From: Candidatus Eiseniibacteriota bacterium
Lineage (GTDB): Bacteria; Eisenbacteria; RBG-16-71-46
Length of the DNA stretch: 35,480 bases
Reading direction: 5' to 3'
NCBI GenBank assembly: GCA_031364845.1
Contig: JANLWX010000126.1
Location: forward strand, 1-35,480
Shown here: piece after piece, positions 7,950 to 27,915 of the stretch
Layout: the number at the start of each line of letters is the position of its first letter
Numbering within the stretch: the stretch's first letter is position 1
Program-made: the position numbers and the translations under genes
Notes under the pieces: model-generated
What the model saw: only the letters and a program-made list of their open reading frames with translations
The model's database searches: none
Told to the model about the DNA's origin: nothing

Positions 7950-7962
7950 GTCTCGAAGAGAA

Positions 7963-9201: not shown

Positions 9202-9208
9202 GGAGGCC

Positions 9209-11659
9209 ATGAGCACTCATTTGGATACACCACCTGCGGAGCATGCTTCTGCGCCACGCGATCCTGTCTGCGGCATGAGCGTCAAGCCGACGAGCCCACA
9301 CCACACGACCTACCACGGTCACGACTATTTCTTCTGCAGTGCGGGATGTCTCAAGCGTTTCACTGAAGACCCCGAACGGTATCTGTCGCCGCCTGCCACA
9401 CCGGTCCCGGCAGTCCCGGCAGGGACGGCCTGGATCTGCCCGATGGATCCCGAGGTACGCTCCGACAAGGCCGGGAGTTGCCCAAAGTGCGGCATGGCGC
9501 TCGAGCCCGAGATGGTCGTGGTCACGACAAAGACCGAGTGGACGTGCCCGATGCATCCGGAAGTCATTCGGGATGCGCCGGGTTCGTGTCCCATTTGCGG
9601 CATGGCGCTCGAGCGCCGCATCGTAACGCTCGAAGAGACGGAGAATCCCGAGTACGCCGACATGAGCCGGCGATTCAAGATCTCGGTCATCCTGACGGCA
9701 CCACTCCTCGCGCTGATGATCGGTGCACTGCTCCCGGGACAACTACTTCATCAACTGATCGCGCCCGCGCTCATGGGCTGGATCGAATTGGCGCTCGCAA
9801 CGCCGGTCGTCATGTGGGGCGGATGGCCGTTCTTCGTGCGCGGTTGGCAATCCGTCGTCAACCGCAGCCCGAACATGTTCACCCTGATCGCGCTCGGAGT
9901 CGGGGTCGCCTTCCTCTACAGCCTGGTCGCCGTTCTATCACCGGGCGTCTTTCCGGCGTCGTTTCGTGACATGAGCGGCAGAGTCGGAACTTACTTCGAG
10001 GCGGCGGCGGTGATCGTGACGCTCGTCCTGCTCGGCCAGGTCTTGGAGTTGCGGGCCCGTGGTCAAACGAGCGCCGCGATCCGGTCGCTCCTGGGAATGG
10101 CACCGACGACAGCTCGCCGTCTCCGCGCGGACGGAACCGATGAAGATGTTCCGCTCGATCAGGTTCAGGTCGGCGACCGCCTCCGGGTACGTCCCGGTGA
10201 GAAGGTTCCGGTCGACGGGATCGTCACGGAGGGGCGGAGCTCGGTCGATGAGTCGCTGGTCAGCGGCGAGCCGATCCCGGTGGAGAAAGAACCCGGCAGC
10301 CGTGTGGTCGGGGCCACCCTCAACGGAACGGGCTCACTCGTGATCGAGGCCGAAAAGGTGGGAAGCGATACGTTGCTGGCCCGCATCGTTCAGATGGTGT
10401 CGCAGGCACAGCGGAGCCGCGCACCCATTCAACGCCTGGCGGATCGTGTGTCCGCGTGGTTCGTCCCGACCGTTGTGGCGATCGCCATTGTGACGTTCGT
10501 GGTCTGGGCGCTCGTGGGTCCCGAGCCGCGGATGGCGTATGCAATGGTCAACGCGGTGGCCGTCCTCATCATCGCCTGTCCGTGTGCGCTCGGACTCGCC
10601 ACACCGATGTCGATCATGGTCGCCGTCGGCAAAGGCGCCACCATGGGAGTCCTGTTTCGAAACGCCGAAGCGATCGAGACGCTTCGCAGTGTGGACACCC
10701 TCGTCTTCGACAAGACCGGGACGCTGACCGAAGGCAAACCCAGGCTCGTGGGCATCGTGACCGCGGAAGAATGGCGCGACGACGATGCGCTTCGACTGGC
10801 GGCGAGCCTCGAGCGTGGCAGCGAGCATCCGCTGGCCGGGGCGATCGTGTCGGGCGCGCATGAGCGCCGCCTTGCATTGAGCGAAGCTTCTGACTTCTCC
10901 GCAATCTCCGGCAAGGGAGTGCAGGGGAGGGTGGAGGGCAAGGCGGTGGCCCTCGGAAATGCGGCCCTTCTTTCCGAGCTCGGCATCGCCTCTCCCGCAT
11001 TGGAGCCGGAGGCGGAGCGCATGCGCCTCGACGGCCAGACCGCCATGTTCCTGGTCGTCGAGGGGCGGACCGTTGCCGTGCTCGGCGTGGCCGACCCGCT
11101 CAAACCCACGACGCACGAGGCGATTCAGCAGCTTCACGCCGAAGGACTCCGTCTCGTCATGCTCACGGGCGACAACCGGACCACAGCCGAGGCGGTCGCA
11201 CGGCAGCTCGGACTCGATGAGGTGCTCGCGGGAGTCTTGCCCGATGGCAAGGCCGAGGTGGTGCGGAAGCTGCAGACTGAAGGCCGTTCGGTGGCGATGG
11301 CGGGCGATGGAATCAACGACGCGCCGGCGCTCGCCGCAGCACAGGTCGGCATCGCAATGGGCACCGGCACCGACGTGGCGATGGAAAGCGCGGGCGTGAC
11401 ACTCGTCAAAGGCGATCTTCGAGGCATTGCGCGAGCGCGCCAGCTCAGCCGGGCTACCATGTCGAACATCCGGCAGAACCTGTTTTTCGCTTTCGTCTAC
11501 AATGCGCTCGGAGTGCCGATCGCGGCGGGCGTGCTGTATCCGTTCTTCGGCCTGCTCCTTTCGCCGGCGATCGCCGCCGCAGCAATGAGCTTCAGCTCGG
11601 TCTCGGTGATCGGAAACGCTTTGCGATTGCGGGGCGTCAGGCGCGATTCGAAGGGCTGA
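9209..11659 (+). CDS. copA: Cu(I)/Ag(I)-type P1B ATPase with YHS domain and two CPM(H/D) metal-binding modules
   Basis: GGGAGG before ATG 9209; [14 protein letters not shown] (YHS), [22 protein letters not shown] and MSFSS in the last TM helices (P1B-1 signature). Confidence 0.95.
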
Positions 11660-11693: not shown

Positions 11694-13970
11694 ATGCCAC
11701 TGACCCCCGGTACCCGCCTCGGCCCTTATGAGATCGTCGCGCCGCTCGGAGCGGGAGGAATGGGTGAGGTCTATCGCGCGCGCGACGCGCGGCTTGGCCG
11801 CGACGTGGCGATCAAGGCATTGCCCACGGCGTTCGCCGCCGACCCCGAGCGTCTCGCGAGGTTTCAGCGCGAGGCCCAGGTGCTCGCGTCGCTGAACCAT
11901 CCGAACATCGCGGCGATCTATGGGCTCGAAGAGGCGTCCGGCACGCCACACCTCGTGCTCGAACTGGTCGAGGGCGAAACACTCGCGGCACGCCTCACGC
12001 GCGGACCGCTGCCGCCACCCGAAGCACTGCGTCTCGGCATCCAGGTGGCCACGGCATTGGAGGCCGCGCACGAAGGTGGAGTCGTGCATCGAGACCTCAA
12101 ACCCGGCAACGTCATGATCACGCCACGCGGCGTCGCCAAGGTGCTCGACTTCGGGCTCGCGAAGAGCGATGCACCCCTGCCATCGGGAGGCGACCTGTCC
12201 GAGTCGCCGACGGCGACCGCGCATATCGGGGCCACCGTCGCCGGCACGATCCTCGGCACCGCGGCATACATGAGTCCCGAGCAGGCGCGCGGCAAGCCGG
12301 TCGACCGGCGCAGCGACGTGTGGTCGTTCGGTTGCCTTCTGTTCGAGTGTCTCGCGGGACGCCCGGCCTTCGGCGGCGAGACCGTTTCCGATCTCATCGC
12401 GCGCATCCTCGAGCGCGACCCCGACTGGTCGGCGCTGCCTGCGGGAGTTCCGCCGCGTGTGAGAGAGATCCTGCGTCGCTGTCTGCGCAAGGAAGCCGAG
12501 GCGCGCCCGCGCGACATTCGTGACGTGCGGCTCGAGCTGGAAGAGATCACCGCAGGCGGCACCAAAGCCGACGCCGCGCGTGAGAAGTCGATCGCCGTAT
12601 TGCCGTTCGAAAACCAGAGTGGTCCCGACGACGAATACTTCGCCGACGGTGTCACCGACGAGATCCTGAACGCGCTCGCTCAGGTCGAGGGTCTGCGCGT
12701 CGCCGCGCGCACCTCGTGCTTCATGTTCAAGGGCCGCCGCGAGGACCTGCGCCTGGTCGGCGAGAAGCTCGACGTGGCCACGGTGCTCGAAGGCACGGTG
12801 CGGCGCTCCGGATCGCGGCTGCGCATCACCGCGCAGATGGTCAACGCAGCCGACGGCTACCAGCTCTGGTCGGAGCGCTACGACCGCGAGATGACCGACG
12901 TGTTCGCGGTCCAGGACGAGATCGCGCTGGCGATCACGACGCGCCTGCGCGGCGCGATGAGGACCGAAGCGCTCCGGGGCCGGGCGCGAAGCGGCACCAC
13001 GAGCATCGAAGCCTTCGAGTTGCTGTTGCGTGGCCGGGCGTTCCAATCCAAGCGTGGCCGCTTCATGTCGCAGGCGATCGTCTGCTTCGAGCAGGCCATC
13101 GCGCTCGATCCTGGCTACGCGGACGCCCTCGCATCGCTCGCGAACTCGTACCGGTTGATGGGCGTCTTCTCCTACGTCCGGCCCGCCGAAGTAATGTCGA
13201 GGGCCAAGGCCCTGGCGGAGCGAGCATTGACGATCGACTCCGGACTGGCCGAAGCGTGGTCGACCCTGGCGGCGATCGAAGAACAGTACGAGCGCGCCTA
13301 CGCCAAGTCGGACTCCAGCTACGAACGTGCGCTCGCGATCGATCCGCGCCACTCCCAGGCGCGTGCCCAGCGAGCGCTGTGGCGAGCGATCCGCGGCGTG
13401 ATGCCGATCGCAACCGCGGTGGCCGAATTGCAACGCGCCGTTCAAGACGATCCGTTGAACTCGTGGGTGGTAGGCATGCACTCCTACGTCCTCGGGATTG
13501 CGGGCCGTCACGAAGAGTCGATCGTCGAGGCGGAGCGCTCGATCGGCCTCGATCCCGATTCGTTCTTCGCCCACCTCGAGGTAATGCGGAGCCACGCGTG
13601 GGCCGGCGACTACGCACGAACCATCGCGGAGGCCCGGGGGCTGCTGGGATCCTCCGGCCGGCACTCCTGGGCACTGGGCCTGCTCGCGTGGACGCATGGC
13701 AAAGCAGGCGATGTGGACAAGGCGCGCGCCTGCTACGACGAAATGGAAGCGCGTTCACGCCACGAATTCGTGGCGCCGAGTTGGCTCGCCGTCGCGGCGT
13801 CTTCTGCCGGACTGACCGCCGAGTCCATTCGCTGGGCCGAGGTCGGCGTGGCGGAACGCGATCCACTCATGCTCTGGTCCAGTCTTCCGTATTGGGACTC
13901 GATCCGGACGCATCCACGATTCGCCGACGTCATGCGAGGCGTTCTCGATGGGCCCGGCCTGCAGGCGTAG
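11694..13970 (+). CDS. Hanks-type Ser/Thr protein kinase with TolB-like and TPR domains
   Basis: GAGGMG, VAIK, HRDLKPGN, DFG, YMSPEQ, DVWSFG; SIAVLPFEN...YFADGVTDEI module; TPR-like repeats (AIALDP, ALAIDP). Confidence 0.95.
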   Translation: MPLTPGTRLGPYEIVAPLGAGGMGEVYRARDARLGRDVAIKALPTAFAADPERLARFQREAQVLASLNHPNIAAIYGLEEASGTPHLVLELVEGETLAARLTRGPLPPPEALRLGIQVATALEAAHEGGVVHRDLKPGNVMITPRGVAKVLDFGLAKSDAPLPSGGDLSESPTATAHIGATVAGTILGTAAYMSPEQARGKPVDRRSDVWSFGCLLFECLAGRPAFGGETVSDLIARILERDPDWSALPAGVPPRVREILRRCLRKEAEARPRDIRDVRLELEEITAGGTKADAAREKSIAVLPFENQSGPDDEYFADGVTDEILNALAQVEGLRVAARTSCFMFKGRREDLRLVGEKLDVATVLEGTVRRSGSRLRITAQMVNAADGYQLWSERYDREMTDVFAVQDEIALAITTRLRGAMRTEALRGRARSGTTSIEAFELLLRGRAFQSKRGRFMSQAIVCFEQAIALDPGYADALASLANSYRLMGVFSYVRPAEVMSRAKALAERALTIDSGLAEAWSTLAAIEEQYERAYAKSDSSYERALAIDPRHSQARAQRALWRAIRGVMPIATAVAELQRAVQDDPLNSWVVGMHSYVLGIAGRHEESIVEAERSIGLDPDSFFAHLEVMRSHAWAGDYARTIAEARGLLGSSGRHSWALGLLAWTHGKAGDVDKARACYDEMEARSRHEFVAPSWLAVAASSAGLTAESIRWAEVGVAERDPLMLWSSLPYWDSIRTHPRFADVMRGVLDGPGLQA

Positions 13971-14005: not shown

Positions 14006-14095
14006 ATGGCCACGGCACGGACGGTTCTTCTCGTCGGGGGCACGGGAGGCCATGTACTGCAGCGGATCACACCCGCGGCATCACGCGCCGCCTGA
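14006..14095 (+). pseudogene. 5' stub of an NAD(P)-binding Rossmann-fold protein
   Basis: GAGGAGG (13993-13999) then MATARTVLLVGGTGGHVLQ..., running into the 3' end of the convergent gene; resembles the N-terminus of 27916..28674. Confidence 0.5.
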
Positions 14096-15128
14096 GGCGG
14101 TAGTGCGCGACCATCCACTCGTTCCCCGATCGGAGCCCGAACATTTCCGCGCACGCAAGGAAGAAGATCCGCCAACGTTGATACGACCGGCGGGCCTCCG
14201 CCGGTCCGCGGGCGCCTGAGAGGATGCGAAGGATCTCGGTTCGGTGGCGACGCAGGTTCGCCACCCACGCCTCGGCGGTGCGCCGGTAGTGATCGCCACT
14301 CCACGTCCACTCGGCTTCCACTTCGAGCGGAGTGTCGAGATGGCGAATGTAGTCGCGAGACGGCATCATCCCGCCCGTGAAGAAGTGACGGCCGAGCCAG
14401 TCTTCGGGACCGTCGGTGGCATAGGGATACGTCGCGAAACGATGGCAGAAGACATGCAGGAATACGCGACCGTCAGGTGCCAGGCATTGCTCGACGCGTT
14501 GCAGCAGTGCCTCCCAGTTCCGCATGTGCTCGAACATCTCCACCGAGACGACGCGGTCGAAGACATCGAACGGCTGAAAGGCATTCATGTCGAGCGTGCG
14601 GACTTCGAGGTTGCCCAGGCCGCGCCGCTCCGCTTCGGCCAGAATGTGCGCGCGCTGGGAGGCGGAGTTCGAGATCGCGACAATGCGCGCCCGGGGAAAT
14701 TGAGTCGCCATCCACAGTGAGAGCGAGCCCCAGCCGCAGCCGAGTTCCAGGATGCGCATCCCGTCGCGCAGATCGGCACGCTCGCAGGTGATGCGCAGCG
14801 AGGCCGCCTCGGCGTCGCTCAGGTCCCGCATTTCCGGAGCCCAGAAACACGCGCTGTACTTGCGGTGCGTCCCGAGTACCTGCCCGAAGAACTCACTCGG
14901 CAGCTCGTAGTGTTGTGTGTTCGCGATCTCGGGCACACGCGCGATCGGACCCCGGCGCGCTTCGTCGCGGAATGCGAGTTGGTCACGCGCGACATCCGCT
15001 TCCGAGAGGCCGGCGAGGCGTGAAGCATGCTCCGCGCATTGGCGGCGGATGGCGCGCCTCAGGACCCACTCGGGGACGAGGCCACGCTCGGCCAGCTCGA
15101 GCCCGAGAGCAGAACCGCTCACGCTCAT
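14067..15128 (-). CDS. Class I SAM-dependent methyltransferase, Cfa superfamily (coclaurine N-methyltransferase-like branch)
   Basis: ANTQHYELP, KYSAC, LELGCGWG, SVEMFEHMRN, HFFTGGMMPS, WRIFFLACAEMFG; ATG 15128 overlaps upstream stop (ATGA). Confidence 0.9.
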   Translation of the reverse strand: MSVSGSALGLELAERGLVPEWVLRRAIRRQCAEHASRLAGLSEADVARDQLAFRDEARRGPIARVPEIANTQHYELPSEFFGQVLGTHRKYSACFWAPEMRDLSDAEAASLRITCERADLRDGMRILELGCGWGSLSLWMATQFPRARIVAISNSASQRAHILAEAERRGLGNLEVRTLDMNAFQPFDVFDRVVSVEMFEHMRNWEALLQRVEQCLAPDGRVFLHVFCHRFATYPYATDGPEDWLGRHFFTGGMMPSRDYIRHLDTPLEVEAEWTWSGDHYRRTAEAWVANLRRHRTEILRILSGARGPAEARRSYQRWRIFFLACAEMFGLRSGNEWMVAHYRLRRRVMPRV

Positions 15129-15907
15129 GACGGCCTCTCCCTGGGCGGCCATGGGATGAAGGGCGATGTGATGCGCTGGTACCGGCGGTACGCTTCACCG
15201 CGGCTTTCGAGCAGACGTTGCTCGAGCAACGGGATGCCGGTGACCTTGAGCAGGAACCACAGCATCACGGCGGGCCCGAGCCAGGCCAGCCACCGGCCGT
15301 CTCCGCCGGAAGCGAGGCAAACGTAGGCGAACCAGTGGACCCATTCGAAGAAGTAGTTCGGGTGCCTCGAGTATCGCCACAGTCCCTCGTCGCACACGCG
15401 CCCCGCGGAATCGGGGCGAGCACGAAAACGTCGCAGCTGATGATCGGCCACGGCCTCCCCGGTGACGCCGACGGTCCAGATCAAGACGCCGAGCGCATCC
15501 GGCCAGCCCAGTCGCGAATGGTTCCATGCGGCCCACGCCATCGGGAGCGCAAAGAGCACGGCCCATAGCGCCTGGAGCTGGTAAAACCCGAACATGTACG
15601 TCTGGAACCGTGGACCCCACTCAACCCGCATCTTCTGATAGCGGACGTCCTCATGGCGTTCGCCCGCAACACGTCGCCAGATGTGCCCGCCCAAGCGAAC
15701 GCCCCAGACGCCCGCAAGTCCCGCGATGATCCATTGGCGCGGTCCCTCGCCGAGAACGAGCGCGAAGACGCAGCCGATCACCGCGGTGGCGAACGACCAG
15801 GCCACATCGACGATGCCCGCGTTACCGCTGCGCCGCTGCCCGTACCAGAGGATCGCCATCGCGAACGCGGTGCCGGCCCATGCGAGAAGTGCGAGCCTGA
15901 GCGTCAC
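15125..15907 (-). CDS. DUF1295 membrane protein (steroid 5-alpha-reductase/ICMT-like fold)
   Basis: NAGIVDVAWS, WGVRLGGH, EDVRY, EAVADHQL, GLWRYSRHPNYFFEW, TGIP; GTG 15907 overlaps upstream stop (GTGA). Confidence 0.9.
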   Translation of the reverse strand: MTLRLALLAWAGTAFAMAILWYGQRRSGNAGIVDVAWSFATAVIGCVFALVLGEGPRQWIIAGLAGVWGVRLGGHIWRRVAGERHEDVRYQKMRVEWGPRFQTYMFGFYQLQALWAVLFALPMAWAAWNHSRLGWPDALGVLIWTVGVTGEAVADHQLRRFRARPDSAGRVCDEGLWRYSRHPNYFFEWVHWFAYVCLASGGDGRWLAWLGPAVMLWFLLKVTGIPLLEQRLLESRGEAYRRYQRITSPFIPWPPRERPS

Positions 15908-17259
15908 GCGTTCACCTCGCTGTCGCACGGATGCGACCTGATCTTCGCGGGCTTCGGCGGTGCTGCGCGGGTTGCGGCCATCGCGTGCTCACGCTCGACC
16001 GCGAGGGTTGCCGGCTGCGCGCTCCATTGCGGCCTGGCGAGGACGATCTGCATTCCGTCCACACAGTCTTCCTCGAAGCCGGCCTCGCAGTAAGACAGGT
16101 AGTAGTTCCAGAGCCTGATGAACCGCTCGTCGAATCCAAGCGCCCGGACTTCGGCAAGCCGCTCGTTGAACGCCGCTCTCCAGCGCCGCAGCGTCTCGCC
16201 GTAGTGGCGCCCGATGCTTTCGACGTGGTCGATGCGGAGATCAGTCTGCTCGATGGCCTTCGTGATGGCGCCCAGCGAGGGCAGGCTGCCGCCGGGGAAC
16301 ACGTGCCGCTGGATGAAGTCGGCCGAGGCCAGATAGCCTGGGTAGTCGCGGTCGGGAATGGTGATCGCCTGCAGCAACATCGCTCCCTCGGGACGCAGCC
16401 GCTCCGCGCAAGCACGAACATAGACCGGCAGATTCACGTGCCCCACGGCCTCGATCATCTCGATCGACACGAGCCGGTCGAACGTTCCCGCGAGATCGCG
16501 GTAATCGGCGCCCAGCACTTCGACACGGCTCGACAACCCCGCCGCGCGAACGCGCTCGAGCGCCAGCTGCCGCTGCGCCGGGGAAATCGTGGTGGTCGTC
16601 ACGCGGCAGCCGTAGTGCGTGGCCGCGTGCACGGCGAAACTTCCCCAGCCGGTGCCGATCTCGAGCACCCGGTGACCGGGTACGAGACCCAGCTTCCTGC
16701 ACACGGTATCGAGCTTGTGGATCGACGCCTCGCGCAGAGTGCTCTCGGGCCGCGGAAACATCGCGCACGAATAGGTCATGGTCTCATCGAGGAACAATGA
16801 GTAGAACGCGTTGCCGAGATCGTAGTGGGCTTCGATGTTCCGGCGGCTCCCGCGCCGTGAGTTCGCGCGCAGTGCATGAGCGACTCGCGCGACCGGCCGG
16901 GCGAGCGCGGCGTGCGTCCAACGGCCACCCTCGTGGCGCGCCACGTTGCGCGCCAGTACGCGCAGGAGAAGGGTGAGGTCATCGGTCGTCCACTCGCCGC
17001 GCAGGTACGATTCCGCGAACCCCAGCGATCCGGCCATCGCGACGCGCGCGTAGAACCCGGAGTCGAGGACGCGAAGCGACGCGGGAGGGAGGTCCGACGC
17101 GACTCCGAGAAGCCGGGTTCCGGCGAAATCCTCGACCCACAACTGCGCACCGCGCATGCGCGCGAGGCGCTGATGAACGGCCGCGCGCGCGAGAGGAGCG
17201 ATGATGCCGGGGCCACGCCGGCGCGGGTGGATCGCGGGCTGCGAGTGCGTCACGCTCAT
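15904..17259 (-). CDS. cfa: Cyclopropane-fatty-acyl-phospholipid synthase family methyltransferase (UfaM-like)
   Basis: GSLGFAESY, NIEAHYDLGNAFY, MTYSCA, LEIGTGWG, SIEMIEAVG, FIQRHVFPGG, WNYYLSYCEAGF; ATG 17259 in ATGA overlap. Confidence 0.92.
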   Translation of the reverse strand: MSVTHSQPAIHPRRRGPGIIAPLARAAVHQRLARMRGAQLWVEDFAGTRLLGVASDLPPASLRVLDSGFYARVAMAGSLGFAESYLRGEWTTDDLTLLLRVLARNVARHEGGRWTHAALARPVARVAHALRANSRRGSRRNIEAHYDLGNAFYSLFLDETMTYSCAMFPRPESTLREASIHKLDTVCRKLGLVPGHRVLEIGTGWGSFAVHAATHYGCRVTTTTISPAQRQLALERVRAAGLSSRVEVLGADYRDLAGTFDRLVSIEMIEAVGHVNLPVYVRACAERLRPEGAMLLQAITIPDRDYPGYLASADFIQRHVFPGGSLPSLGAITKAIEQTDLRIDHVESIGRHYGETLRRWRAAFNERLAEVRALGFDERFIRLWNYYLSYCEAGFEEDCVDGMQIVLARPQWSAQPATLAVEREHAMAATRAAPPKPAKIRSHPCDSEVNA

Positions 17260-18020
17260 GCGCCGCTCGATCCCCGCAGCCGGCCCGGGTGCGGATGCAG
17301 AGGAGAGCGCTTGAGCCACAGTTTGAGTGCCTGCCAGTAGATCGCGGCAATCACCGAGGCGGTCATGAACGGGTGCTGGAGAAGTGCTGAGGCCAGGCTG
17401 CGGGTCGTGATTTCGCGGCGCGCGAGGGACATCGTGGCGTCGAAGAACGTGCGCCCGCGGGATCGGTTCTCCATGTGAACCATCAAGGCGCGGCCCGGCG
17501 GGGTGAGCCGCCAGAAGTAGTCGAGGTCCATCGGCATGAACGGAGAGACATGGAACTCCTTCGGGAACGAGAACTCGAACGCGTTCGCCGCCTGCTCGCG
17601 GCAGTCGAGGACGTAGCAATGGCGCTCGCCCCACGGTGTGTTGTGAACCTCAGCCACGATCGCCTCCAGCCGTTCGCCTTCGGGGGCAAAGCAGTAGTAG
17701 AAACTCACCGGGTTCATGCAGTAGCCCCAGTATCGCAGGTGTGTCAGCAGGCGCACCGGGCCCTCGGGACGCACCCCGATCCGCTCACAGACCAGATCGC
17801 GAACGCATTCGTCGAGCGGCAGTGCGGAATCGCCCAGGTGATCGGCGCGGCGGAACCATGCAGGTGCGGGGCGGTGCGTAGACCATAGCCATCGTCCACG
17901 AAACACGCGGTCCAGTTCGGCCAGATCCAGGTAGACGTAGAAGGCGTGATAGCGGAACGAGTTCGCCACCGGCGACAGTCGGCGGTGACGGATCGGACCA
18001 AAATAGAGCGCGCTGTTCAT
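17256..18020 (-). CDS. DUF1365 protein (UfaO-like)
   Basis: HRRLSPVANSFRY, MNPVSFYYC, EVHNTPWGERHCY, KEFHVSPFM, IYWQALKLWLK; ATG 18020 in ATGA overlap. Confidence 0.92.
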   Translation of the reverse strand: MNSALYFGPIRHRRLSPVANSFRYHAFYVYLDLAELDRVFRGRWLWSTHRPAPAWFRRADHLGDSALPLDECVRDLVCERIGVRPEGPVRLLTHLRYWGYCMNPVSFYYCFAPEGERLEAIVAEVHNTPWGERHCYVLDCREQAANAFEFSFPKEFHVSPFMPMDLDYFWRLTPPGRALMVHMENRSRGRTFFDATMSLARREITTRSLASALLQHPFMTASVIAAIYWQALKLWLKRSPLHPHPGRLRGSSGA

Positions 18021-19348
18021 GTCGGCGTGGCCACGAGATTTGCCGGGCGTGATGCGTGGTCTGACGCGCGCGCCCCGATGCTCGCCGGGTCCGCCGCGAT
18101 CCTCGCCGGTTGCGACGCGATGCCCGCAGCGACCTCGAGGGCACTGCGCACACCGTCCTCGTGAAACCCGTTCCCGAAGTAGGCGCCGCAGAACCACACG
18201 CGGTGCGTGCCCTGGATGCGGGCACGCTGGCCGCGCAGACGCACCCAGTCCAGGCTGTACTGCGGATGCGAATAGGTGAACCGCCGGATCACGCGTGACG
18301 GAGAGACTGCCTCCGTCTCGTTGAGGGTGACGAGGAACCGCGTCGAGGAGACAAACCCCTGCAGGCGGTTCAGGTCGTAGGTGAGCGTGGCGAGGTCGCG
18401 GCGTTGATGAACGTGGTAGTTCCAGCTCGCCCACGCTTTGAGGCTGCGGGGCAGCAACGAAGTGTCCGTGTGCAGCACGACGTCGTTGTCCTGGTAGCGC
18501 ACCGCACCGAGGATCTCGCGCTCGGCGGCGGTCGGATCCTCGAGCAGCGCGAGCGCGTCGTCGCCATGACAGGCGAGGACCACTTCGTCGTAGTCGGCCT
18601 CGCCGGAGGTCGTCATCACGCGCACGCCGCCGCCGGTACGTCGCACCGATCGTACCCGGTCACCTCTTCGGATCCGGTCGCGAAAGGGTGCCGAGAGCCG
18701 CTCCACATATCGAGCCGAGCCGTCGACGACGGTACGCCACTCGACGCGGCGGCGAAGGTTCAACTCGAGCAGATCGTGGCGATCGAGGAACTCCACCACG
18801 AAGCGCGCCGGATAATTGCGAAAGGCGCTGCCGGGCGCGGACCACAGCGACGACCCGAGCGGCAGAAGGTGCCAGGCCACGAACTCCTCGCTATAACCAC
18901 CGGCGGCGACCAGGTCTTCCACCGTGGCATCCTCTGACAGGCCGGCCACGGTTGCGCGCGCCTCGCGGTAGAAGCGGACGACATCGCGGAGCATGCGCCA
19001 GAAGCCGGGCCGGACCGCGTTGCCCGGCTGGCAGAAGATCGAGCCGAGTCCCGATCCGCTGTACTCGACCCCGGTGCGGGAGCAGCGGACACTGAAGCTC
19101 ATGCAGCTGGGCTTGGACGCCACACCGAGGTCGTCCAGAAGCGCGTTGAAGTGCGGATAGTCGCGCCGGCTGAAGATCAGAAAGCCGGTGTCGAGCGCCC
19201 GCGTCGCGCCCGCGTCGTCCACGATCACCGTGTGTGCGTGGCCACCGAGGCGCCGTTCGGCTTCGAACAACGTGACTTCGTGGTCGGAATTCAATGCTCG
19301 GGCGGCCGTGAGTCCGGAAACGCCCGCGCCGACGATCGCGATCTTCAC
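18017..19348 (-). CDS. FAD-dependent oxidoreductase (amine oxidase-like, UfaD-like)
   Basis: KIAIVGAGVSGL, EAERRLGGHAHT, DTGFLIF, MSFSV, VVLHTD, WASWNY, YSHP, GAYFGNGFHEDG; start likely GTG 19348. Confidence 0.92.
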   Translation of the reverse strand: MKIAIVGAGVSGLTAARALNSDHEVTLFEAERRLGGHAHTVIVDDAGATRALDTGFLIFSRRDYPHFNALLDDLGVASKPSCMSFSVRCSRTGVEYSGSGLGSIFCQPGNAVRPGFWRMLRDVVRFYREARATVAGLSEDATVEDLVAAGGYSEEFVAWHLLPLGSSLWSAPGSAFRNYPARFVVEFLDRHDLLELNLRRRVEWRTVVDGSARYVERLSAPFRDRIRRGDRVRSVRRTGGGVRVMTTSGEADYDEVVLACHGDDALALLEDPTAAEREILGAVRYQDNDVVLHTDTSLLPRSLKAWASWNYHVHQRRDLATLTYDLNRLQGFVSSTRFLVTLNETEAVSPSRVIRRFTYSHPQYSLDWVRLRGQRARIQGTHRVWFCGAYFGNGFHEDGVRSALEVAAGIASQPARIAADPASIGARASDHASRPANLVATPT

Positions 19349-19445
19349 GACCTGCGGCCCCGCCGCGGAATCCTGTCGGATACGGGCTTCAACTCGGTTC
19401 TGCCTGCGGCGGCGTTCGTCCGGGTCATACGGGCCTCTCGAGTGT

Positions 19446-19473
19446 GGAACGCGGCGCCGAAGCACCGCGCCCC
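19446..19473 (-). terminator. 12-bp stem with C(UUCG)G tetraloop just after the gpx stop (no U-tract)
   Basis: Minus strand GGGGCGCGGTGC-TTCG-GCGCCGCGTTCC. Confidence 0.45.
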
Positions 19474-19479
19474 CGGGTT

Positions 19480-20070
19480 CTAGCGTTTCAGCAGCGATTG
19501 CGTGATGCGGTCGGTGATCTTCTTGTCGAGTGGATCCGTCGCGGGATCGAACCGCGCGACCACGTGTCCGTCAGGTGCGACCAGGAATTTGGTGAAGTTC
19601 CACGAGACGTCTCCTGGCCGGCTGGAACCCCGTGTAAGATACGCATAGAGCGGCGCAATGTCCTTGCCCTTCACGCTGATCCTCGCGAAAAGGGGGAAGG
19701 TGGTCCGGAACTCCAGGCTGCAGAACTCCTTGATTTCGGCGTTCGTTCCCGGCTCCTGCCCCATGAAGTTGTTGGCCGGGAACGCCAGGACCTCGAAGCC
19801 ACGCTCCCGGTACCGTTGATAGAGCGCTTCGAGCGACTTGTACTGAGATGTGAAGCCGCAACGCGAGGCGGTGTTGACGATCAGCAGCACTTTGCCGCGG
19901 TAGTCCGCCAGCGACTTCGATTCGCCGTCGATGTTGGTGACCGTGAAGTCGTGCACGCGGTGCTTCACCGCCGGGTCCCCATTCCTGGCTGCTGCGAAGG
20001 ACTCCCGCACCGCAACGGCCGCGAGCGCGAGCAGTGCCATCACAGGAGCGAACCGAAGTACGCGTTGCAT
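19480..20070 (-). CDS. gpx: Glutathione peroxidase family protein (Cys-type) with signal peptide
   Basis: VNTASRCGFTSQY, FPANNFMGQEPG, WNFTKFLV; N-terminal hydrophobic segment ending SFA-A. Confidence 0.93.
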   Translation of the reverse strand: MQRVLRFAPVMALLALAAVAVRESFAAARNGDPAVKHRVHDFTVTNIDGESKSLADYRGKVLLIVNTASRCGFTSQYKSLEALYQRYRERGFEVLAFPANNFMGQEPGTNAEIKEFCSLEFRTTFPLFARISVKGKDIAPLYAYLTRGSSRPGDVSWNFTKFLVAPDGHVVARFDPATDPLDKKITDRITQSLLKR

Positions 20071-20230
20071 GTTTCGATCTCCTCGCGAGGGTGCGGCTCA
20101 GTTGTTGACGATGATCTGATTCCGGCCAGCGGTGTGGGCTGCGGCGGCACGAGCCGGGAGGAGCTCACCGTTGGATCGCCTGCGACATCGAAGCGCTTCG
20201 ATGCCCTCGCGAGCCAATAAGGTTCATGTT

Positions 20231-20263
20231 TTGAATAATTCTTGAATAGATATTGACTCAGGC
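20231..20263. promoter_or_regulatory. Three tandem 11-bp direct repeats, candidate CarH/LitR-type operator
   Basis: TTGAATAATTC / TTGAATAGATA / TTGACTCAGGC at 20231, 20242, 20253 in an AT-rich patch of the divergent intergenic region. Confidence 0.65.
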
Positions 20264-20354
20264 GGCCGATACCGACATCGTGAGAACCGGGGCATCGAGT
20301 ATCATGGCAGACTCTCGACGACCGGCCCGCACAGTCAGGAAGGACACGTTTGGA

Positions 20355-21326
20355 ATGCCACGCAAGCCGAAACGCTCGCCGACATCGGAGGTTCACGATC
20401 CCGGGCTGTTGACGATCGGGGCGTTGGCCAGGGCAACAAGCATCCCGGTTCCCACCTTGCGAACCTGGGAACGGCGTTACCAGTCACCGGTACCCACCCG
20501 CAAACCCTCGGGCCACCGGCTCTACCCGGTCAGTCTGGTTGCGCGCCTGCGCAAAGTTGCGCGGCTTCTGAATCATGGGCACCGGCCCGGTGAAATCTTG
20601 CAATTGGCCCCGGAAGAACTGGACTCGCTGCTGGCGCTCTCGGGTCCGACGGCTGAACGCAGCGCATCCCAGAACATGGTCGCGGCCGACGCCGTCACGC
20701 CGGACATCGAGTTGGGCGAGATGCTGCAGTCCGTGAGGGAGTTCGATCGCGACGCGCTGATGGGCAACTTCAGGCGCACGTGGATCCACCTCGGTCCCCT
20801 GCAATTCCTGAAGCAGTGCGCAGCACCTTTGATGGACGAAGTGGGATCCGCCTGGCACAGCGGCCGGCTCGAGATCCGCCACGAGCACTTCGCCACCGCG
20901 TGCCTGTCGGGTTTCCTGCTCGAGGCGCGAGAACCCTTCGATCGGCAGGCGCGAGGACCGCGCGTGGTCGCTGCCATGCTGCCCGCTGACGCACATGAAG
21001 GCGGTCTGCTCATGGCCAGCGTGATCCTGGCGATGCGTGGTTGCCGGCTCCTGTATCTGGGACTCGAAACTCCCGTGGACGAGATCGTGACCGCGGCCCG
21101 CGATGGCGGGGCTCGCGCCGTCGCGATCAGCATTTCCGCAACCGCGCCGCGCAGCCCGGCGCGCAAGTCCATCGCGGCGCTTCGGGATGCGCTGCCTCGC
21201 CGCATCGCACTGTGGGTGGGAGGCGCCGGCGCACCGAAGCCTCCGAAAGGGGTCACGCGCTTCGACAGTCTCGAGAGGCTGGATGCCGCACTCACCGCCT
21301 GGCGCGAGACCGTATCGCCGGGGTGA
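20355..21326 (+). CDS. MerR-family regulator with cobalamin-binding domains (CarH/LitR-like)
   Basis: MerR HTH (LTIGALA..TLRTWERRY..GHRLY); W-x9-EH (WHSGRLEIRHEH); DAHEGG, YLG, AISIS, VGG; AGGAAGGA before ATG 20355. Confidence 0.9.
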   Translation: MPRKPKRSPTSEVHDPGLLTIGALARATSIPVPTLRTWERRYQSPVPTRKPSGHRLYPVSLVARLRKVARLLNHGHRPGEILQLAPEELDSLLALSGPTAERSASQNMVAADAVTPDIELGEMLQSVREFDRDALMGNFRRTWIHLGPLQFLKQCAAPLMDEVGSAWHSGRLEIRHEHFATACLSGFLLEAREPFDRQARGPRVVAAMLPADAHEGGLLMASVILAMRGCRLLYLGLETPVDEIVTAARDGGARAVAISISATAPRSPARKSIAALRDALPRRIALWVGGAGAPKPPKGVTRFDSLERLDAALTAWRETVSPG

Positions 21327-21429
21327 GACGTCTTGCGTCTGGTCCCGGCGATCTCCGCACTCGGAGCGACCATTGGCGATTGGACCCGTCGTTCTCGATC
21401 GCCACGGTCCACTCGCCTACACTTCCTCG

Positions 21430-24400
21430 ATGCTCATCCGTTTCTTGTGGATCTATTCCTGGCTCGTGCTGGCTCCGGCCCTTGCGGGAGAGGCTCGTGC
21501 GGCCGATGTATCCCCGCCGAACGTCCATCCGCACAAGCTCGTTCTCGAGCTGTCCCCAGGCACTCCGCGCCCTGGCCACGGTCACGTGGAGCGGCCGAAC
21601 GCCCGGCCCGAGCGTTTGTCCTCGAGCGGAATAGCGGCCCTCGATGCTGTCCACGCGCGCTACCAGCCTTTGGTCTTCGAGCCGCTCTTCCCGACTGCCG
21701 TCCCGCCACCGTTCGGATCGGACGACGAAGACCTCACACGCTTCTATGTCATCGAGCTGCCAGCCACAGCGATTCTGTCCGACGCACTCGCCGACTACGC
21801 CGCCGTGCCCGGCGTCGCGAGCGCCGAACCGGTGCCCGTCGCGGGGCTCTCCTACGTGCCGAACGATCCGCGGGTCGCCGACCAATGGCAGCTCGGCCAG
21901 CCCAATGATCGCGACAGCGACGTCTTCGAAGCATGGGATCTGGTGCGGGGCGACTCGTCGATTGTCATCGCGATCCTCGATACCGGTGTGCTCTACAGCC
22001 ACGAAGACATGGGAGGCAGCGCGCCGCCCTACACCGACGGCAACATCGCGCACAATTGGATCGAGATGGGTGGAGTTGCGGGCGTGGACGACGACGCCAA
22101 CGGCTTCGTCGACGACTTCCGCGGCTGGGACTTCGTCACGGCAGGGGCCGGCGTTCCCGGCGAGGACGTGAGCGGCGCGGACAACAATCCGATCGACTTC
22201 GCCGGGCACGGGACGTACTGCGCCGGCATGGCGAGCGCGCGCACTGACAACGGAGTCGGCATTGCCGGCACCGGTTTTCGCGCGCGCATCCTTCCACTGC
22301 GCATCGGCTACAAAGACGCGGCAAGCAGTCCCGGCCAGATCGACATGAGTTGGGCAGCACAGGCCATCGTCTATGCGGCGAACAACGGCGCTCACGTCAT
22401 CAACTGCTCGTGGGAGAGTTACTCGCTCTCGGCATTGGGTTCCGCCGTGACCTACGCCTTGAGCCGCGGCGTCACGATCGTGGTCGCCGCCGGCAACGCG
22501 AACACCGAGACGCCGAGCCAGAACTACCTGGCCTCGCGAGGAGACTGCATCGATGTCGGAGCGATCGACAGCAACGACGTGCGCGCCGGCTTCTCCAACT
22601 TCGGAACGTGGGTCGATGTCTCAGCCGCCGGACTCTCGGTCACGAGCACCTGGGGAGGCGCATCGGTGGCGAGCTACCTCACGAGTTCGGGCACATCGGT
22701 CGCGGCACCATTCGTCGCGGGGGCGGTCGGTCTTTACCAGGCGTACCGCAAGAGCCTGGGGCTGCCGCTCGCGACCCCGACCGAGAATCGCCTGCGCGTC
22801 CGCGACACGGGCGACAACATCGACGCGCTGAACCCGAGCTACGCCGGGCGGATGGGCACGCGCGTCAACGTGCACCGGCTGCTCACCGATCCGTACACAT
22901 TGTCGTGGGAGAACGTGGGCACGGGCGGCTTCACGACATCGCCCGCGATCGCCGATCTCGACGGCGATGGCCAGGCGGAAGTCATCATCGGCGGAAGTGA
23001 TCAGCGCGTGATCGCGGTCACCGGCGCCCAGGGCGACACGCTGCCCGGCTTCCCCGTATTGCTCACCGGCGCGATCTACTCGAACCCGGCGACCTGGGAT
23101 GTCGACCTCGACGGCTTGCCGGAAATTCTGGTCGGCACGACCGAAGGACTTCTGTATGCGATCAAGGGCAACGGCACGATGGCCCCTGGATATCCGATCG
23201 TTCTCTCGGGCGACTTGCGAGCGGGCCCCGCGATTGCCGACATCGATCGCGCGCATCCCGGCCTCGAGTTGGCGATCGGCTCGTCGGATGGAAAACTCTG
23301 GGTGCTCGACCGCACCGGAGCGATTCGCCCGGGCTGGCCACAACAGGCTCGCAGCGGCATCTACGCCGTTCCCGCGTTGCATGACTTCGATGGCGATGGC
23401 GGGGCCGAAGTCGTCGTCGGCTCACTCGATTCGACGCTTTACGGATTCCATGGCGACGGAACTCCGATGGCGGGCTGGCCCATCACGCTGCCGAATCGGA
23501 TCGAGTCCTCGGCGGCGATCGGGGATGTGGACCACGATGGCGCGGCCGACATCATCGTCGGCTGCAACGATCAGAACGTGTACGGCTTGAGATCGAATGG
23601 AACGCCTATGACGGGCTGGCCCGTGTCGGTGATGGGCGCAGCACGCTCGTCGCCCGCACTCGCGGACCTGGCGGGGAATGACGGCCTGCTCGAAGTCGCC
23701 ATCGCCTCCGACGGCATGAGGCTTTACGTGATCGATGGCGGCGGGAACGTCGTCGCGGGCTGGCCGGTAACCCTCGGTGGCCGGGTGTCGGGTGGCGTGA
23801 TCGTTGCGGACGTGGACGGGGACGGTGCACTCGAAGTCCTGGCCGGCACCACCGACAAGAAGCTCAACGTGTATTCGGAGTCGGGCCAATCGAAGCCGGG
23901 TTGGCCGCGACTCTACGATGGAGTGATCTCGGGCACGCCCTCGGTGGGCGATCCCGATGTGGACGATCGCACCGAGATCATCTTCGGCACGAGTACGCGG
24001 ACGCTGCGCGCCGTCGACATGGGAGCCGGATCGTGGAGCTCATCACCCGCGCCGTGGCCGACGTTGCACCGCGACTACTTCCGACGGGGAAGTACGTCTG
24101 CCTTGGTTGTCGGAGTGCCTGTCGATGACGGAATGGCGGGCGTACGCACGCTTGCGTTTCATGCGCAGCCCAACCCATCCGTGGCGCCGATTCGGTTTGT
24201 CCTCCGCCGTCCGGGTTCGACGCCCGTCGATGAGGCACGCGGCAGCGACGGCGTGCGGATCTATTCGGTCACGGGACAGAAGGTGCGCGATCTGCCGATC
24301 ACGTCGAGCCCGGGCAACGATCTGGTGCTGAACTGGGACGGAACCGACGAGCAGGGGCGGAGAGTAGCGACCGGACTCTATTTCGCCCACGCGCGCTGGC

Positions 24401-24441
24401 GTGGAGTGGAGGCGCGGCTGCGCCTCGTGCGCCTGCGCTAG
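21430..24441 (+). CDS. Secreted S8 subtilisin-like serine peptidase with FG-GAP repeats and FlgD-Ig/T9SS-like C-terminus
   Basis: Signal peptide; ILDTG, GHGT, AAGN, GTSVAAP; repeated SPAIADLDGDG..GWP units; PNP..IYSVTGQKVR..WDGTDEQG..GLYF. Confidence 0.93.
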   Translation: MLIRFLWIYSWLVLAPALAGEARAADVSPPNVHPHKLVLELSPGTPRPGHGHVERPNARPERLSSSGIAALDAVHARYQPLVFEPLFPTAVPPPFGSDDEDLTRFYVIELPATAILSDALADYAAVPGVASAEPVPVAGLSYVPNDPRVADQWQLGQPNDRDSDVFEAWDLVRGDSSIVIAILDTGVLYSHEDMGGSAPPYTDGNIAHNWIEMGGVAGVDDDANGFVDDFRGWDFVTAGAGVPGEDVSGADNNPIDFAGHGTYCAGMASARTDNGVGIAGTGFRARILPLRIGYKDAASSPGQIDMSWAAQAIVYAANNGAHVINCSWESYSLSALGSAVTYALSRGVTIVVAAGNANTETPSQNYLASRGDCIDVGAIDSNDVRAGFSNFGTWVDVSAAGLSVTSTWGGASVASYLTSSGTSVAAPFVAGAVGLYQAYRKSLGLPLATPTENRLRVRDTGDNIDALNPSYAGRMGTRVNVHRLLTDPYTLSWENVGTGGFTTSPAIADLDGDGQAEVIIGGSDQRVIAVTGAQGDTLPGFPVLLTGAIYSNPATWDVDLDGLPEILVGTTEGLLYAIKGNGTMAPGYPIVLSGDLRAGPAIADIDRAHPGLELAIGSSDGKLWVLDRTGAIRPGWPQQARSGIYAVPALHDFDGDGGAEVVVGSLDSTLYGFHGDGTPMAGWPITLPNRIESSAAIGDVDHDGAADIIVGCNDQNVYGLRSNGTPMTGWPVSVMGAARSSPALADLAGNDGLLEVAIASDGMRLYVIDGGGNVVAGWPVTLGGRVSGGVIVADVDGDGALEVLAGTTDKKLNVYSESGQSKPGWPRLYDGVISGTPSVGDPDVDDRTEIIFGTSTRTLRAVDMGAGSWSSSPAPWPTLHRDYFRRGSTSALVVGVPVDDGMAGVRTLAFHAQPNPSVAPIRFVLRRPGSTPVDEARGSDGVRIYSVTGQKVRDLPITSSPGNDLVLNWDGTDEQGRRVATGLYFAHARWRGVEARLRLVRLR

Positions 24442-24536
24442 ATTCCAGTCAGAGTCGCGATGTCGAGATCCCGACCGCCGTGATCGGCCGACGCACTCGA
24501 TGCCGCCCGGGCGCATCGAGGAGTATGCTCGCCGCC

Positions 24537-25520
24537 ATGAACCCGACTCCCAGTGCATTCAAAGTCGCCGCGGTCCAGGACGCCCCGGTATTCCTCGATC
24601 GAGATGCAACCGTCGCCAAGGCCTGCGATTGGATCGCTCGCGCCGCTGCGGAAGGCGCCCAGCTCGTCGTGTTCCCCGAAGCGTTCGTTCCCGCATACCC
24701 CGACTGGCTGTGGTCGGTGCCCGCGCGCGAGCGGGCGATGCTCAACGAGCTCTATGCCGAGCTTCTCGAACAGAGCATCGACGTCCCCGGACCGGCAACC
24801 GACGTGCTCGGCCAGGCGGCTCAGCGCGCCGGCGTGCACGTGGTGATCGGGGTCAACGAGCGCAATGCCGAAGCGAGCGGCTCGACCCTCTACAATACGC
24901 TGCTGCTCTTCGGCCCCGACGGTCGCCTGCTCGGCAAGCACCGCAAGCTGGTTCCGACCGCATGCGAGCGGATGGTGTGGGCGGCGGGAGATGGCAGCAC
25001 GTTTCAGGTGTTCGACACCGCGCTCGGCAAGATCGCCGGCCTGATCTGCTGGGAGAACTACATGCCGCTGGCCCGCTACGCGGCGTACGCTTGGGGCACG
25101 CAGATCTACGTCGCCGCCACGTGGGATCGCGGCGATCCATGGCTCGCGACCCTGCGCCACATCGCGCGCGAAGGTCGCGTGTTCGTGATCGGGTGCTGTC
25201 AGGCGATACGCCGCGACGACATTCCGGATCGGTACGACTTCAAGAACCGCTATCCCCAAGATCGTGAGTGGATCAACGCCGGCGACAGCGCGATCGTCGG
25301 TCCCGATGGACGATGGATCACGGAACCGCTGCACGAGGTGCAGGGACTCGTGATGGGAGAGATCGACATTCGCGAGGCGCTCGGGTCACGCTGGATGTTC
25401 GACGCCGCCGGCCACTACGCGCGGCCGGATGTGTTCGAACTCACCGTCAATCGCGGCGCGCACCCGATGGTGCGGACGATCGAGCGGGAGGAAGCGCCGG
25501 ACGATGGCGATCCGGTATGA
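24537..25520 (+). CDS. Nitrilase (carbon-nitrogen hydrolase family)
   Basis: Glu-Lys-Cys triad motifs FPEA, HRKLVPT, ICWENYMPLAR; GHYARPDVF. Start 24525 or 24537. Confidence 0.93.
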   Translation: MNPTPSAFKVAAVQDAPVFLDRDATVAKACDWIARAAAEGAQLVVFPEAFVPAYPDWLWSVPARERAMLNELYAELLEQSIDVPGPATDVLGQAAQRAGVHVVIGVNERNAEASGSTLYNTLLLFGPDGRLLGKHRKLVPTACERMVWAAGDGSTFQVFDTALGKIAGLICWENYMPLARYAAYAWGTQIYVAATWDRGDPWLATLRHIAREGRVFVIGCCQAIRRDDIPDRYDFKNRYPQDREWINAGDSAIVGPDGRWITEPLHEVQGLVMGEIDIREALGSRWMFDAAGHYARPDVFELTVNRGAHPMVRTIEREEAPDDGDPV

Positions 25521-25628
25521 CAGAAGAGCTTACGGCACTCGCTCGGACAGTGAACGTGCTCGCTGGGCATGCGCGATACGCTCGGAACCACGAAGCTGGC
25601 GTGGAGGCGTGGAGGAGCGTGCGCTGAA

Positions 25629-27182: not shown

Positions 27183-27301
27183 GAATGGCCAAAGACACCT
27201 ATGGGCAAACCGGGAGAAGGCTTTATCTTCCGTCCCGGCACTGGATCATGAGGCGGTTGAACGTTTCGATCGCCAGTGAGCGACAGAACGAGGAGGCAGC
27301 G

Positions 27302-27706
27302 ATGGCTCGTGTGACGGGGATCGGAGGCGTTTTCTTCAAATCGACGTCGGACAACAAGCGCCTCGCGGCCTGGTACCGGGACAACCTGGGCCTGGGCCTC
27401 GAAGATTGGGGCGGCGCAATCCTCAAGTGGCCGGAGGATCAGGCGGAAGACGGCGGTCTCACCGTGTGGCACGTCGCCGAGCCCGAGTCGAAGTGGTTCA
27501 GCCCGAGCAATTCGAGCTTCATGATCAACTACCGCGTCGACGACATGACCGCTCTGCTCGCGAAGCTCAAGAGCAACGGCGTGGAGATCATCAAGGGTCC
27601 CGATTCCGCAGAGAACGGCAAGTTCGCGTGGATCATGGATCCCGATGGCAACAAGGTCGAGCTGTGGGAGCCGAAGAACTGGGACGACAAGAATAAAGAG
27701 GGATGA
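27302..27706 (+). CDS. VOC/glyoxalase family protein
   Basis: GAGGAGG RBS; MARVTGIGGVFFK, MINYRVDD, GKFAWIMDPDGNKVELWEP. Confidence 0.92.
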   Translation: MARVTGIGGVFFKSTSDNKRLAAWYRDNLGLGLEDWGGAILKWPEDQAEDGGLTVWHVAEPESKWFSPSNSSFMINYRVDDMTALLAKLKSNGVEIIKGPDSAENGKFAWIMDPDGNKVELWEPKNWDDKNKEG

Positions 27707-27915
27707 TCGCCACGTCCGTGATTCCGCACTGCATTGCAGGGGACGTTCCGGCATGACCACCGAACGCAGAAACGCAATCGGACGGAGCACCTTCCTGTTG
27801 TCGGTCGGAAGCGTGGCCGCATCGCAGATGTTGGGAGGCGCGGGCGCGGCAAAGACGCGTCCTGGGTCCGCCCGGGGCACGCTCAGCGTGTGCTCCCAAG
27901 GAAGGCGATGAGGAT

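Follow-up and report, generated by a model that had tools for sequence, protein, structure and literature searches.

We analyse a 35,480-nucleotide (nt) stretch of DNA from a Candidatus Eiseniibacteriota bacterium, here called the window, in which the gene for a CarH-type, B12-binding regulator stands divergent from a peroxidase gene and five lipid genes. On sequence evidence, we consider it probable that the locus forms a B12 light switch for methyl-furan lipids and an exported peroxidase. The regulator bears the marks of CarH, lipid and peroxidase genes diverge from it, and a repeat at the locus is conserved, so the bacterium, which is uncultured, likely makes colourless antioxidant membrane lipids of the furan type in response to light. 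An earlier note on this DNA had proposed that a B12-binding photoreceptor directly controls a lipid antioxidant pathway plus a peroxidase, and all computationally testable parts of that interpretation are supported.

Characterised homologues suggest how cofactor binding, photolysis, repression, and lipid synthesis would proceed. In the dark, and with B12 available, CarH bound to adenosylcobalamin (AdoCbl) would cover the repeats at 20220-20263 and the promoter, repressing the divergent operon gpx-ufaD-ufaO-ufaM-DUF1295-fufM. On illumination the cobalt-carbon bond would be cleaved, and CarH would leave the operator. The enzymes would then methylate, desaturate, and oxygenate unsaturated membrane acyl chains, yielding methyl-furan fatty acids as quenchers of singlet oxygen; peroxides would be removed by the peroxidase, which is likely exported. 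A lack of B12 would have the same derepressing effect.

The window makes up contig C36 of a genome (G000) of 4.6 Mb and 97% completeness; freshwater-sediment metagenomes of one study carry the same DNA, and no RNA data set is listed among the carriers. Four further runs (X5-X8; small shares, with X5 matching in short pieces only) were not used for the habitat label. Independent contigs of runs X2 and X3, which belong to the likely source's own study, agree with the window across the junction between gpx and the FAD gene with 0 differences. All seven genes lie where the earlier note had placed them, gpx and five stop/start-overlapped genes on one side and a MerR regulator on the other, and the GSHPx, Amino_oxidase, NAD_binding_8, DUF1365, CMAS, and DUF1295 matches given for them exceed the Pfam cut-off. 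The features are as follows.

14067..15128, minus strand: second S-adenosylmethionine methyltransferase (methylase 2), likely FufM; 353 amino acids (aa); CMAS 138.6 bits
15125..15907, minus strand: DUF1295 protein, steroid 5-alpha-reductase-like; 260 aa; DUF1295 216.8 bits, Steroid_dh 36.1 bits
15904..17259, minus strand: UfaM-type fatty-acyl methyltransferase (methylase 1); 451 aa; CMAS 293 bits
17256..18020, minus strand: DUF1365 protein, UfaO-like; 254 aa; DUF1365 284.4 bits
18017..19348, minus strand: oxidoreductase binding flavin or nicotinamide adenine dinucleotide (FAD/NAD), UfaD-like desaturase; 443 aa; Amino_oxidase and NAD_binding_8
19345..19428, minus strand: 27-codon mini open reading frame (mini-ORF), its stop codon overlapping the start of ufaD; possibly what remains of a deleted gene for a membrane desaturase
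19480..20070, minus strand: glutathione-peroxidase-family peroxidase, gpx; 196 aa; GSHPx 124.5 bits
20200..20226, minus strand: putative promoter toward gpx; TGAACC (20226-20221), 17 nt, CATC (20203-20200)
20220..20263, minus strand: candidate CarH operator of four 11-bp units in tandem: two full ones (core TATTCA) with a partial unit on either side
20355..21326, plus strand: CarH/class I LitR-type regulator; 323 aa; MerR, four-helix bundle, Rossmann B12-binding domain

The five lipid genes run on through consecutive 4-nt overlaps (ATGA/GTGA). A gap of 131 nt, with no overlap, separates gpx from the FAD gene, and one of 284 nt separates gpx from the regulator gene.

The candidate operator and the regulator

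Both the top-scoring 11-bp triple repeat of the window and its most AT-rich 40-mer lie around 20217-20263. In the direction of the operon, the repeat unit has the form nAnnTnnTCAn, with the core TnnTCA. We regard 20220-20263 as a candidate operator that CarH likely binds; this predicted four-repeat block is an addition to the earlier note and is conserved in relatives. Seven divergent intergenic regions (those of the window, a paralogue in the same genome, and five relatives) align on the repeat block, with a Gibbs information of 52 vs 33 in six shuffled sets. For a genome-wide scan, a matrix was counted from the five other genomes only, its offsets being taken from the joint alignment that includes the window. 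Six matches in the 4.6-Mb genome exceed 14 bits: the window comes first at 32.2 bits, followed by the paralogue's locus on contig C21 (31.0 bits), a fasciclin-like gene on C204 (24.8 bits), and the remainder at no more than 16.9 bits. In the same genome, five column-shuffled matrices reach maxima of 11.8-20.7 bits.

The period-11 repeat is specific to CarH loci. We surveyed the 80 closest CarH loci, many of which end at contig ends, and dropped three that had served for training (n = 77). A repeat pair of at least 15 bits lies within 2.5 kb upstream in 47 of the 77, vs 0 of 61 downstream controls. Because these controls are mostly coding, period-shift and shuffled-column controls were added: pairs at periods 8-10 and 12-14 occur in 3-6 of the 77 loci, and matrices with shuffled columns find them in 2.4 loci on average and in 18 at most. 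When the matrix core is changed to ACA, the loci with a repeat pair drop from 47 to 33. Two loci outside the training set, in which regulator and operon are adjacent, score 34.5 bits (G128) and 41.3 bits (G151).

A second element, TGAAYC-N16/17-CATC, is present in all seven aligned intergenic regions and also in G151. In G128 the CATC part reads CGTC, and the element is missing from the C204 site. We infer an alternative-sigma promoter, and a scan of 19300-21500 returned no sigma70 promoter. The last (fourth) repeat is itself the upstream hexamer of this element, the putative -35, so a bound repressor would cover the promoter.

The regulator is likely an AdoCbl-dependent CarH photoreceptor-repressor, to judge from its domains, motifs, and predicted fold. 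It matches MerR_1 (44.2 bits), B12-binding_2 (30.8 bits vs a cut-off of 23), and B12-binding (PF02310; 38.2 bits vs a cut-off of 32.1). Its best solved relative is the CarH/LitR of Thermus thermophilus (E 5e-27, about 30% identity), and its closest named relatives are metagenome-assembled genomes (MAGs) of Ca. Eisenbacteria. An AlphaFold model (predicted local distance difference test score 88) gave Foldseek matches that, among those listed, are all T. thermophilus CarH/LitR; the B12 domain of this predicted model lies at a root-mean-square deviation of 2.3-2.7 Å from TtCarH in the best-fitting chains. The RxWERRY helix is present as LRTWERRY, and the recognition helix has Thr, at residue 37, where TtCarH has Gln. 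The two B12-related motifs read by the earlier note align to T. thermophilus CarH: W-x9-EH as W167-x9-E177H178, kept in 79 of 80 homologues, and D/ExHxxG as D212-A-H214-E-G-G217, kept in 80 of 80. At window position 20932, contigs of runs X1 and X2 have C for A, a single-base difference within carH and outside the motifs.

Set against the CarH and LitR classes, the protein has the architecture and motifs of class I, the AdoCbl-dependent one. Class II LitR identity was considered and rejected, since both B12 domains exceed the Pfam cut-off; class II proteins are described as keeping the four-helix bundle alone and as not needing B12 (PMC9758184).

Lipid enzymes, peroxidase, and fatty acid supply

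In Rhodopseudomonas palustris, RPA2571-2570-2569 (ufaD, ufaO, ufaM) are reported to suffice for the furan fatty acid (FuFA) 9M5-FuFA, to which FufM adds a second methyl group (PMC7380195). The order ufaD-ufaO-ufaM in the window is the same. UfaO is described as containing DUF1365 (PMC7380195); the DUF1365 protein of the window, a single copy in the genome, is likely UfaO-like and would form the furan ring from O2. A Mesorhizobium terrae plasmid carries the same five genes, together with fasciclin and lipocalin, around rpoE-chrR, and each of the five has a window gene as its best match in this genome, at 36-47% identity (44% for the FAD gene, 45% for DUF1295). A search of metagenomes for the R. 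palustris FufM gene by its published primer gave 119 matches, none of which is the gene.

Methylase 1 has E. coli Cfa (6BQC) as its best PDB match (E 6e-53) and falls below all four Cfa cut-offs of NCBIfam, with 266.8 vs 400 bits for the Cfa equivalog. Its motif reads SIEMIEAVGH...LQAITI vs SVGMFEHVG...LHTI in E. coli Cfa: Glu replaces Gly, and Gln replaces His. The Gly-to-Glu change (G236E) presumably has a role in function; no paper on G236E was found. In a Halomonas pair, the single verified one and read by eye, UfaM shares the motif of methylase 1, and Cfa goes with that of E. coli (PMC12089945, Table S1). A cyclopropane fatty acid synthase was rejected for methylase 1, which is below the equivalog cut-offs and without the GMFEHVG and LHTI motifs.

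Methylase 2 is about 28% identical to methylase 1 and 47% identical to the methylase that accompanies DUF1295 in the sigmaE cluster of Mesorhizobium. Its best PDB match is a coclaurine N-methyltransferase (E 6e-63, vs E 8e-30 for E. coli Cfa), and Arabidopsis AT4G33110 presumably belongs to the same coclaurine-N-methyltransferase branch. FufM is reported to be similar to AT4G33110 (PMC10940516), and its identity to UfaM is given as 26% (PMC7380195 supplement). Family position, identity pattern, and the FufM-AT4G33110 likeness suggest that methylase 2 is likely FufM, which would make dimethyl from monomethyl furan fatty acid.

A reading in which regulation is as proposed and the product is something other than a furan deserves attention here. 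Methyl-branched or cyclopropane chains might be made, or DUF1295 might reduce an intermediate, so that membrane packing would be tuned rather than singlet oxygen quenched. DUF1295 is reductase-like and is not among the three genes described as sufficient for 9M5-FuFA (PMC7380195), the substrate is uncertain, and among solved structures methylase 2 is nearest to plant N-methyltransferases. Yet the gene order shared with the R. palustris trio and the want of a Cfa motif in methylase 1 argue for furans, and we judge a non-furan product unlikely.

The peroxidase that would accompany the furan lipids has Cys-type active-site motifs, as judged by pattern. Its N terminus resembles a signal peptide (hydrophobic stretch, mean 2.8 at residue 11), as in two homologues, and the protein is likely exported. 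The earlier note had counted gpx as part of the module; this holds in the window, but gpx is a variable member, found beside the operon in only 3 of 7 adjacent loci.

As for substrate, a soluble acyl-ACP (acyl carrier protein) desaturase (G000:C137:5271-6245, L308; PF03405, 322 bits), which none of the 14 control genomes has, could supply the unsaturated chains. In three relatives (G006, G022, G161) a PF00487-type membrane desaturase lies between gpx and ufaD, at the position of the mini-ORF. The ends of the two are weakly alike, with scores reached by 2, 6, and 25 of 200 shuffles; the mini-ORF, which keeps ufaD translationally coupled, may be the remnant of a deleted desaturase gene.

Genome context and recurrence of the pairing

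The operon is predicted to be one arm of a small regulon. A second CarH, 57% identical, lies at G000:C21:174-8193 (L034) with two operator-like blocks; one arm beside it holds DUF4397, an unknown gene, DUF2867-NAD, and a second gpx, and the other an FAD oxidoreductase, GTP cyclohydrolase II, and an M50 peptidase. The third member would be the C204 site (G000:C204:893-1550, L303), where a lone fasciclin-like gene and two small ORFs follow the operator. The genome also has a photolyase on C176; it is absent from the six operator matches and, with no detectable operator, was rejected as a regulon member.

Carotenoid genes and the anti-sigma factor ChrR are not detectable. For crtI, the best score in the genome is 78 bits vs a cut-off of 238, and for ChrR 20.7 vs 124.5. 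The sole PF00494 protein, examined as a CrtB candidate, fits squalene synthase better, with all scores below cut-off. Within the window, the earlier note had seen neither a crt nor a photolyase gene, and no such domain occurs among the 24 window proteins scanned.

The genome looks like that of a B12 salvager. It encodes PduO, methylmalonyl-CoA mutase, and a MetH-sized B12 protein, and cobQ was not found in it. At G000:C233:138-4014, a cobalamin riboswitch precedes a TonB-dependent receptor and a secreted protein, likely for B12 uptake. With such apparent salvage, B12 shortage would also derepress the operon, and this opens a different account of the signal: the same repressor and operator might respond not to light but to B12 status, or to a cofactor damaged by oxidation, turning the operon on when AdoCbl is scarce or destroyed. 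Riboswitch-controlled uptake with PduO and no cobQ found fits that account, as do the freshwater sediment label and the report that, in Myxococcus xanthus, repression by CarH depends on a supply of B12 (PMC8156234). The His at position 168, the ligand position of the light state, cuts both ways: only 6 of the 79 homologues with the Wx9EH motif retain it, but the window regulator does, and CtMerR is described as monomerising in light without it (PMC11796333). The neighbours of the clade (photolyase, fasciclin, lipocalin, and ufa genes) moreover match photo-oxidative regulons. We therefore hold a signal other than light to be rather unlikely, and light to be the probable cue.

We surveyed 206 genomes of the phylum, taking E<=1e-40 as a CarH-like match and checking motifs in part of the matches. 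Many of the genomes are incomplete, and related ones do not count as independent. A CarH-like gene is present in 74, DUF1365 in 40, both in 31, and crtI in 2. A CarH-like gene accompanies ufaO (DUF1365) in 31 of 40 genomes, vs 43 of the 166 without ufaO. The earlier note had named a lack of joint conservation in relatives as refuting its reading. Within the phylum, regulator and operon stand side by side in 7 of the 31 genomes that have both. Adjacency is also found outside the phylum, in Binatia, a deltaproteobacterium, and an acidobacterium; with 7 phylum genomes and three outside lineages, the arrangement is not chance, and the predicted CarH-ufa pairing recurs across phyla.

A further survey covered 38 ufa regions, drawn from 36 genomes other than G000; G002, G006, G022, and one broken copy were also left out. 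A repeat pair of at least 20 bits is present in 6: 2 of 3 adjacent loci, 4 of 26 unlinked loci in CarH-bearing genomes, and 0 of 9 in genomes without CarH. All six come from CarH-bearing genomes, and the sequences thus point to genuine CarH control of ufa genes in certain lineages, though not as a general rule. At L269, L270, L273, and L281 (G125, G124, G116, and G129), the repeats abut the ufaD start codon in ufa operons distant from carH, which may point to very short leaders or to roadblock repression.

Adjacency could also reflect a shared transfer of stress genes, with the repeats autoregulating carH only and an alternative sigma factor driving the operon from TGAACC-N17-CATC. The operator site does lie 92-135 nt ahead of the carH start, the conserved promoter shape is not of the sigma70 type, and most ufa operons in the phylum lie apart from carH and show no such repeats. 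Against this, a repressor on the fourth repeat would cover the putative -35 hexamer, repeats occur at those distant ufaD starts and at the lone fasciclin gene, ChrR is below cut-off, and no sigma gene recurs beyond 3 of 80 loci among the neighbour clusters (judged by eye). Autoregulation alone is thus very unlikely, and direct CarH control of the operon remains our preferred reading.

A number of observations weigh against that reading. At the operator, the published CarH unit is nAnnTnnACAn (PMC8156234, PMC9304148), and the core TnnTCA departs from its canonical TnnACA; in G098, regulator and operon are adjacent with no operator site in the available sequence. In the regulator, three of the four signature motifs described for photoreceptors (GxxW, EH, GxxH, GxxxP; PMC11796333) are exact, and GxxH reads AxxH, with Gly in 10 of 13 aligned relatives. 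The NCBIfam CarH model NF052513 gives 113.6 bits with a cut-off of 400, and is still the best NCBIfam match. The Arg-Asp salt bridge of the dimer is missing, A213 and E238 standing at the aligned positions, which vary across the clade; the published description gives the pair, or its reverse, only for many CarH homologues (PMC9304148).

On the lipid side, neither a membrane desaturase nor FabA was found in G000, so cis-vaccenate, the substrate of Rhodobacter sphaeroides UfaM, is not assured; a weak FabA match was judged by eye to be a region of FabZ type next to genes for lipid A. The Ufa and FufM assignments come from comparison with the Mesorhizobium cluster and Halomonas UfaM, and with the Ufa proteins of R. 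sphaeroides and R. palustris by description only. In terms of distribution, carH and ufa genes lie within 10 kb in only 7 of the 31 genomes with both (read from coordinates), 22 of the 26 unlinked ufa loci in CarH-bearing genomes have no repeat pair of at least 20 bits, several being ended by contig ends, and a genome of the same genus (G001) has neither part. Just 6 of the 80 closest CarH loci carry ufaD, ufaO, and ufaM in the available sequence: three with Eisenbacteria-like identity, plus those of Binatia, the deltaproteobacterium, and the acidobacterium. Finally, the DNA was found in sediment metagenomes, where light may be scarce.

Across the same 80 loci, the neighbours include fasciclin (24), DUF2867 (16), DUF378 (15), DUF4397 (12), and photolyase (1). 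A crt test by pattern alone on these loci gave a single crtB-like match, which is HpnD. One deltaproteobacterial MAG has two CarH-like genes flanking the ufa cluster (L109), with Wx9EH in one and ExHxxG in the other; the second gene call may be cut short. In addition, a family of 186-aa secreted-looking proteins stands beside CarH in 18 mostly Gemmatimonadota loci (L100, L103, L105, L113, L114, L117, and 12 more).

Known systems and neighbouring genes

The nearest known system is that of CarH and class I LitR (T. thermophilus 5C8D/5C8E, Bacillus megaterium, Myxococcales). Shared features are the MerR, four-helix bundle, and Rossmann domains, Wx9EH, D/ExHxxG, and RxWERRY, together with divergent promoters and an operator in which full and partial 11-bp repeats follow one another in tandem over a -35-like element, as described in PMC8156234 and PMC9304148. 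The window differs in its predicted targets, which are ufa-type genes, gpx, and fasciclin rather than crt (no crtI was found in the genome), and in its TnnTCA core, the Thr for Gln in the recognition helix, the loss of the Arg-Asp pair, and an identity of about 30%.

Class II LitR proteins (PplR/PmlR of Pseudomonas putida and P. mendocina) are LitR-family repressors of ufaM and a neighbouring FAD oxidoreductase, within a light-inducible, non-carotenoid cluster (PMC9758184). They are described as B12-independent, switched by a LOV protein, and binding TGTACA-N12-TGTACA (PMC9758184), whereas the window has both B12 domains and a period-11 operator. The sigmaE(RpoE)-ChrR regulon with the Ufa/FufM pathway (R. 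sphaeroides, R. palustris, M. terrae) shares ufaD, ufaO, ufaM, DUF1295, and the second methylase, with fasciclin and lipocalin nearby (PMC7380195, PMC7074977). Unlike it, this genome has no ChrR over cut-off, and a direct photoreceptor would stand in place of the sigma/anti-sigma cascade; the window also places all enzymes in one coupled operon with gpx, to which relatives add the membrane desaturase. E. coli Cfa (6BQC) belongs to the same CMAS fold family, but methylase 1 is below the Cfa equivalog cut-offs and has motif changes as in Halomonas UfaM.

Control of ufaM by class II LitR (PMC9758184) and by sigmaE (PMC7074977) has been published. A literature search, only partial for the key LitR/CarH papers, found none that links a B12-binding CarH with ufa genes; of LitR-ufa links, it showed only that of class II. 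Both parts are known, their pairing is a prediction that the operator makes testable, and the mechanism is not a new one. B12-dependent CarH proteins have been described almost wholly as carotenoid switches, while control of ufa genes has been ascribed to sigmaE-ChrR or to the B12-independent class II LitR. At this locus the two come together. If the reading is true, a phylum with crtI in 2 of 206 genomes retains B12 light sensors in about one third of them for lipid and peroxide defence. The pairing is recurrent enough that the window is one example among many.

A broader proposal, which we advance tentatively as possible rather than probable, is that a whole CarH clade (that of Eisenbacteria, with related members among Gemmatimonadota, Acidobacteriota, and Binatia) left carotenoid control, reads TnnTCA, and runs a colourless photoprotection regulon. 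Here, photolysis of B12 would directly switch on a complete dimethyl furan fatty acid route, fed by a delta-9-type desaturase and therefore perhaps with a new ring position, plus the exported peroxidase, replacing the sigmaE-ChrR cascade. A CarH with likely different DNA specificity might serve as an orthogonal optogenetic repressor, and the operon as a compact single-operon furan fatty acid kit, with which functions could be assigned to DUF1295 and to the fasciclin, DUF4397, DUF378, and DUF2867 partners.

The remainder of the window holds other genes. Positions 1350-11659 carry a heavy-metal efflux set: an outer-membrane factor, a CusB-like adaptor, an RND pump, and a YHS/HMBD P1B-type ATPase. 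The flanks at 11694-13970 and 21430-35480 encode a Ser/Thr kinase with TPR repeats, several large secreted proteins (an S8 protease with FG-GAP and FlgD-Ig, and FG-GAP and Kelch proteins), a nitrilase-family protein, and a RibD-C protein.

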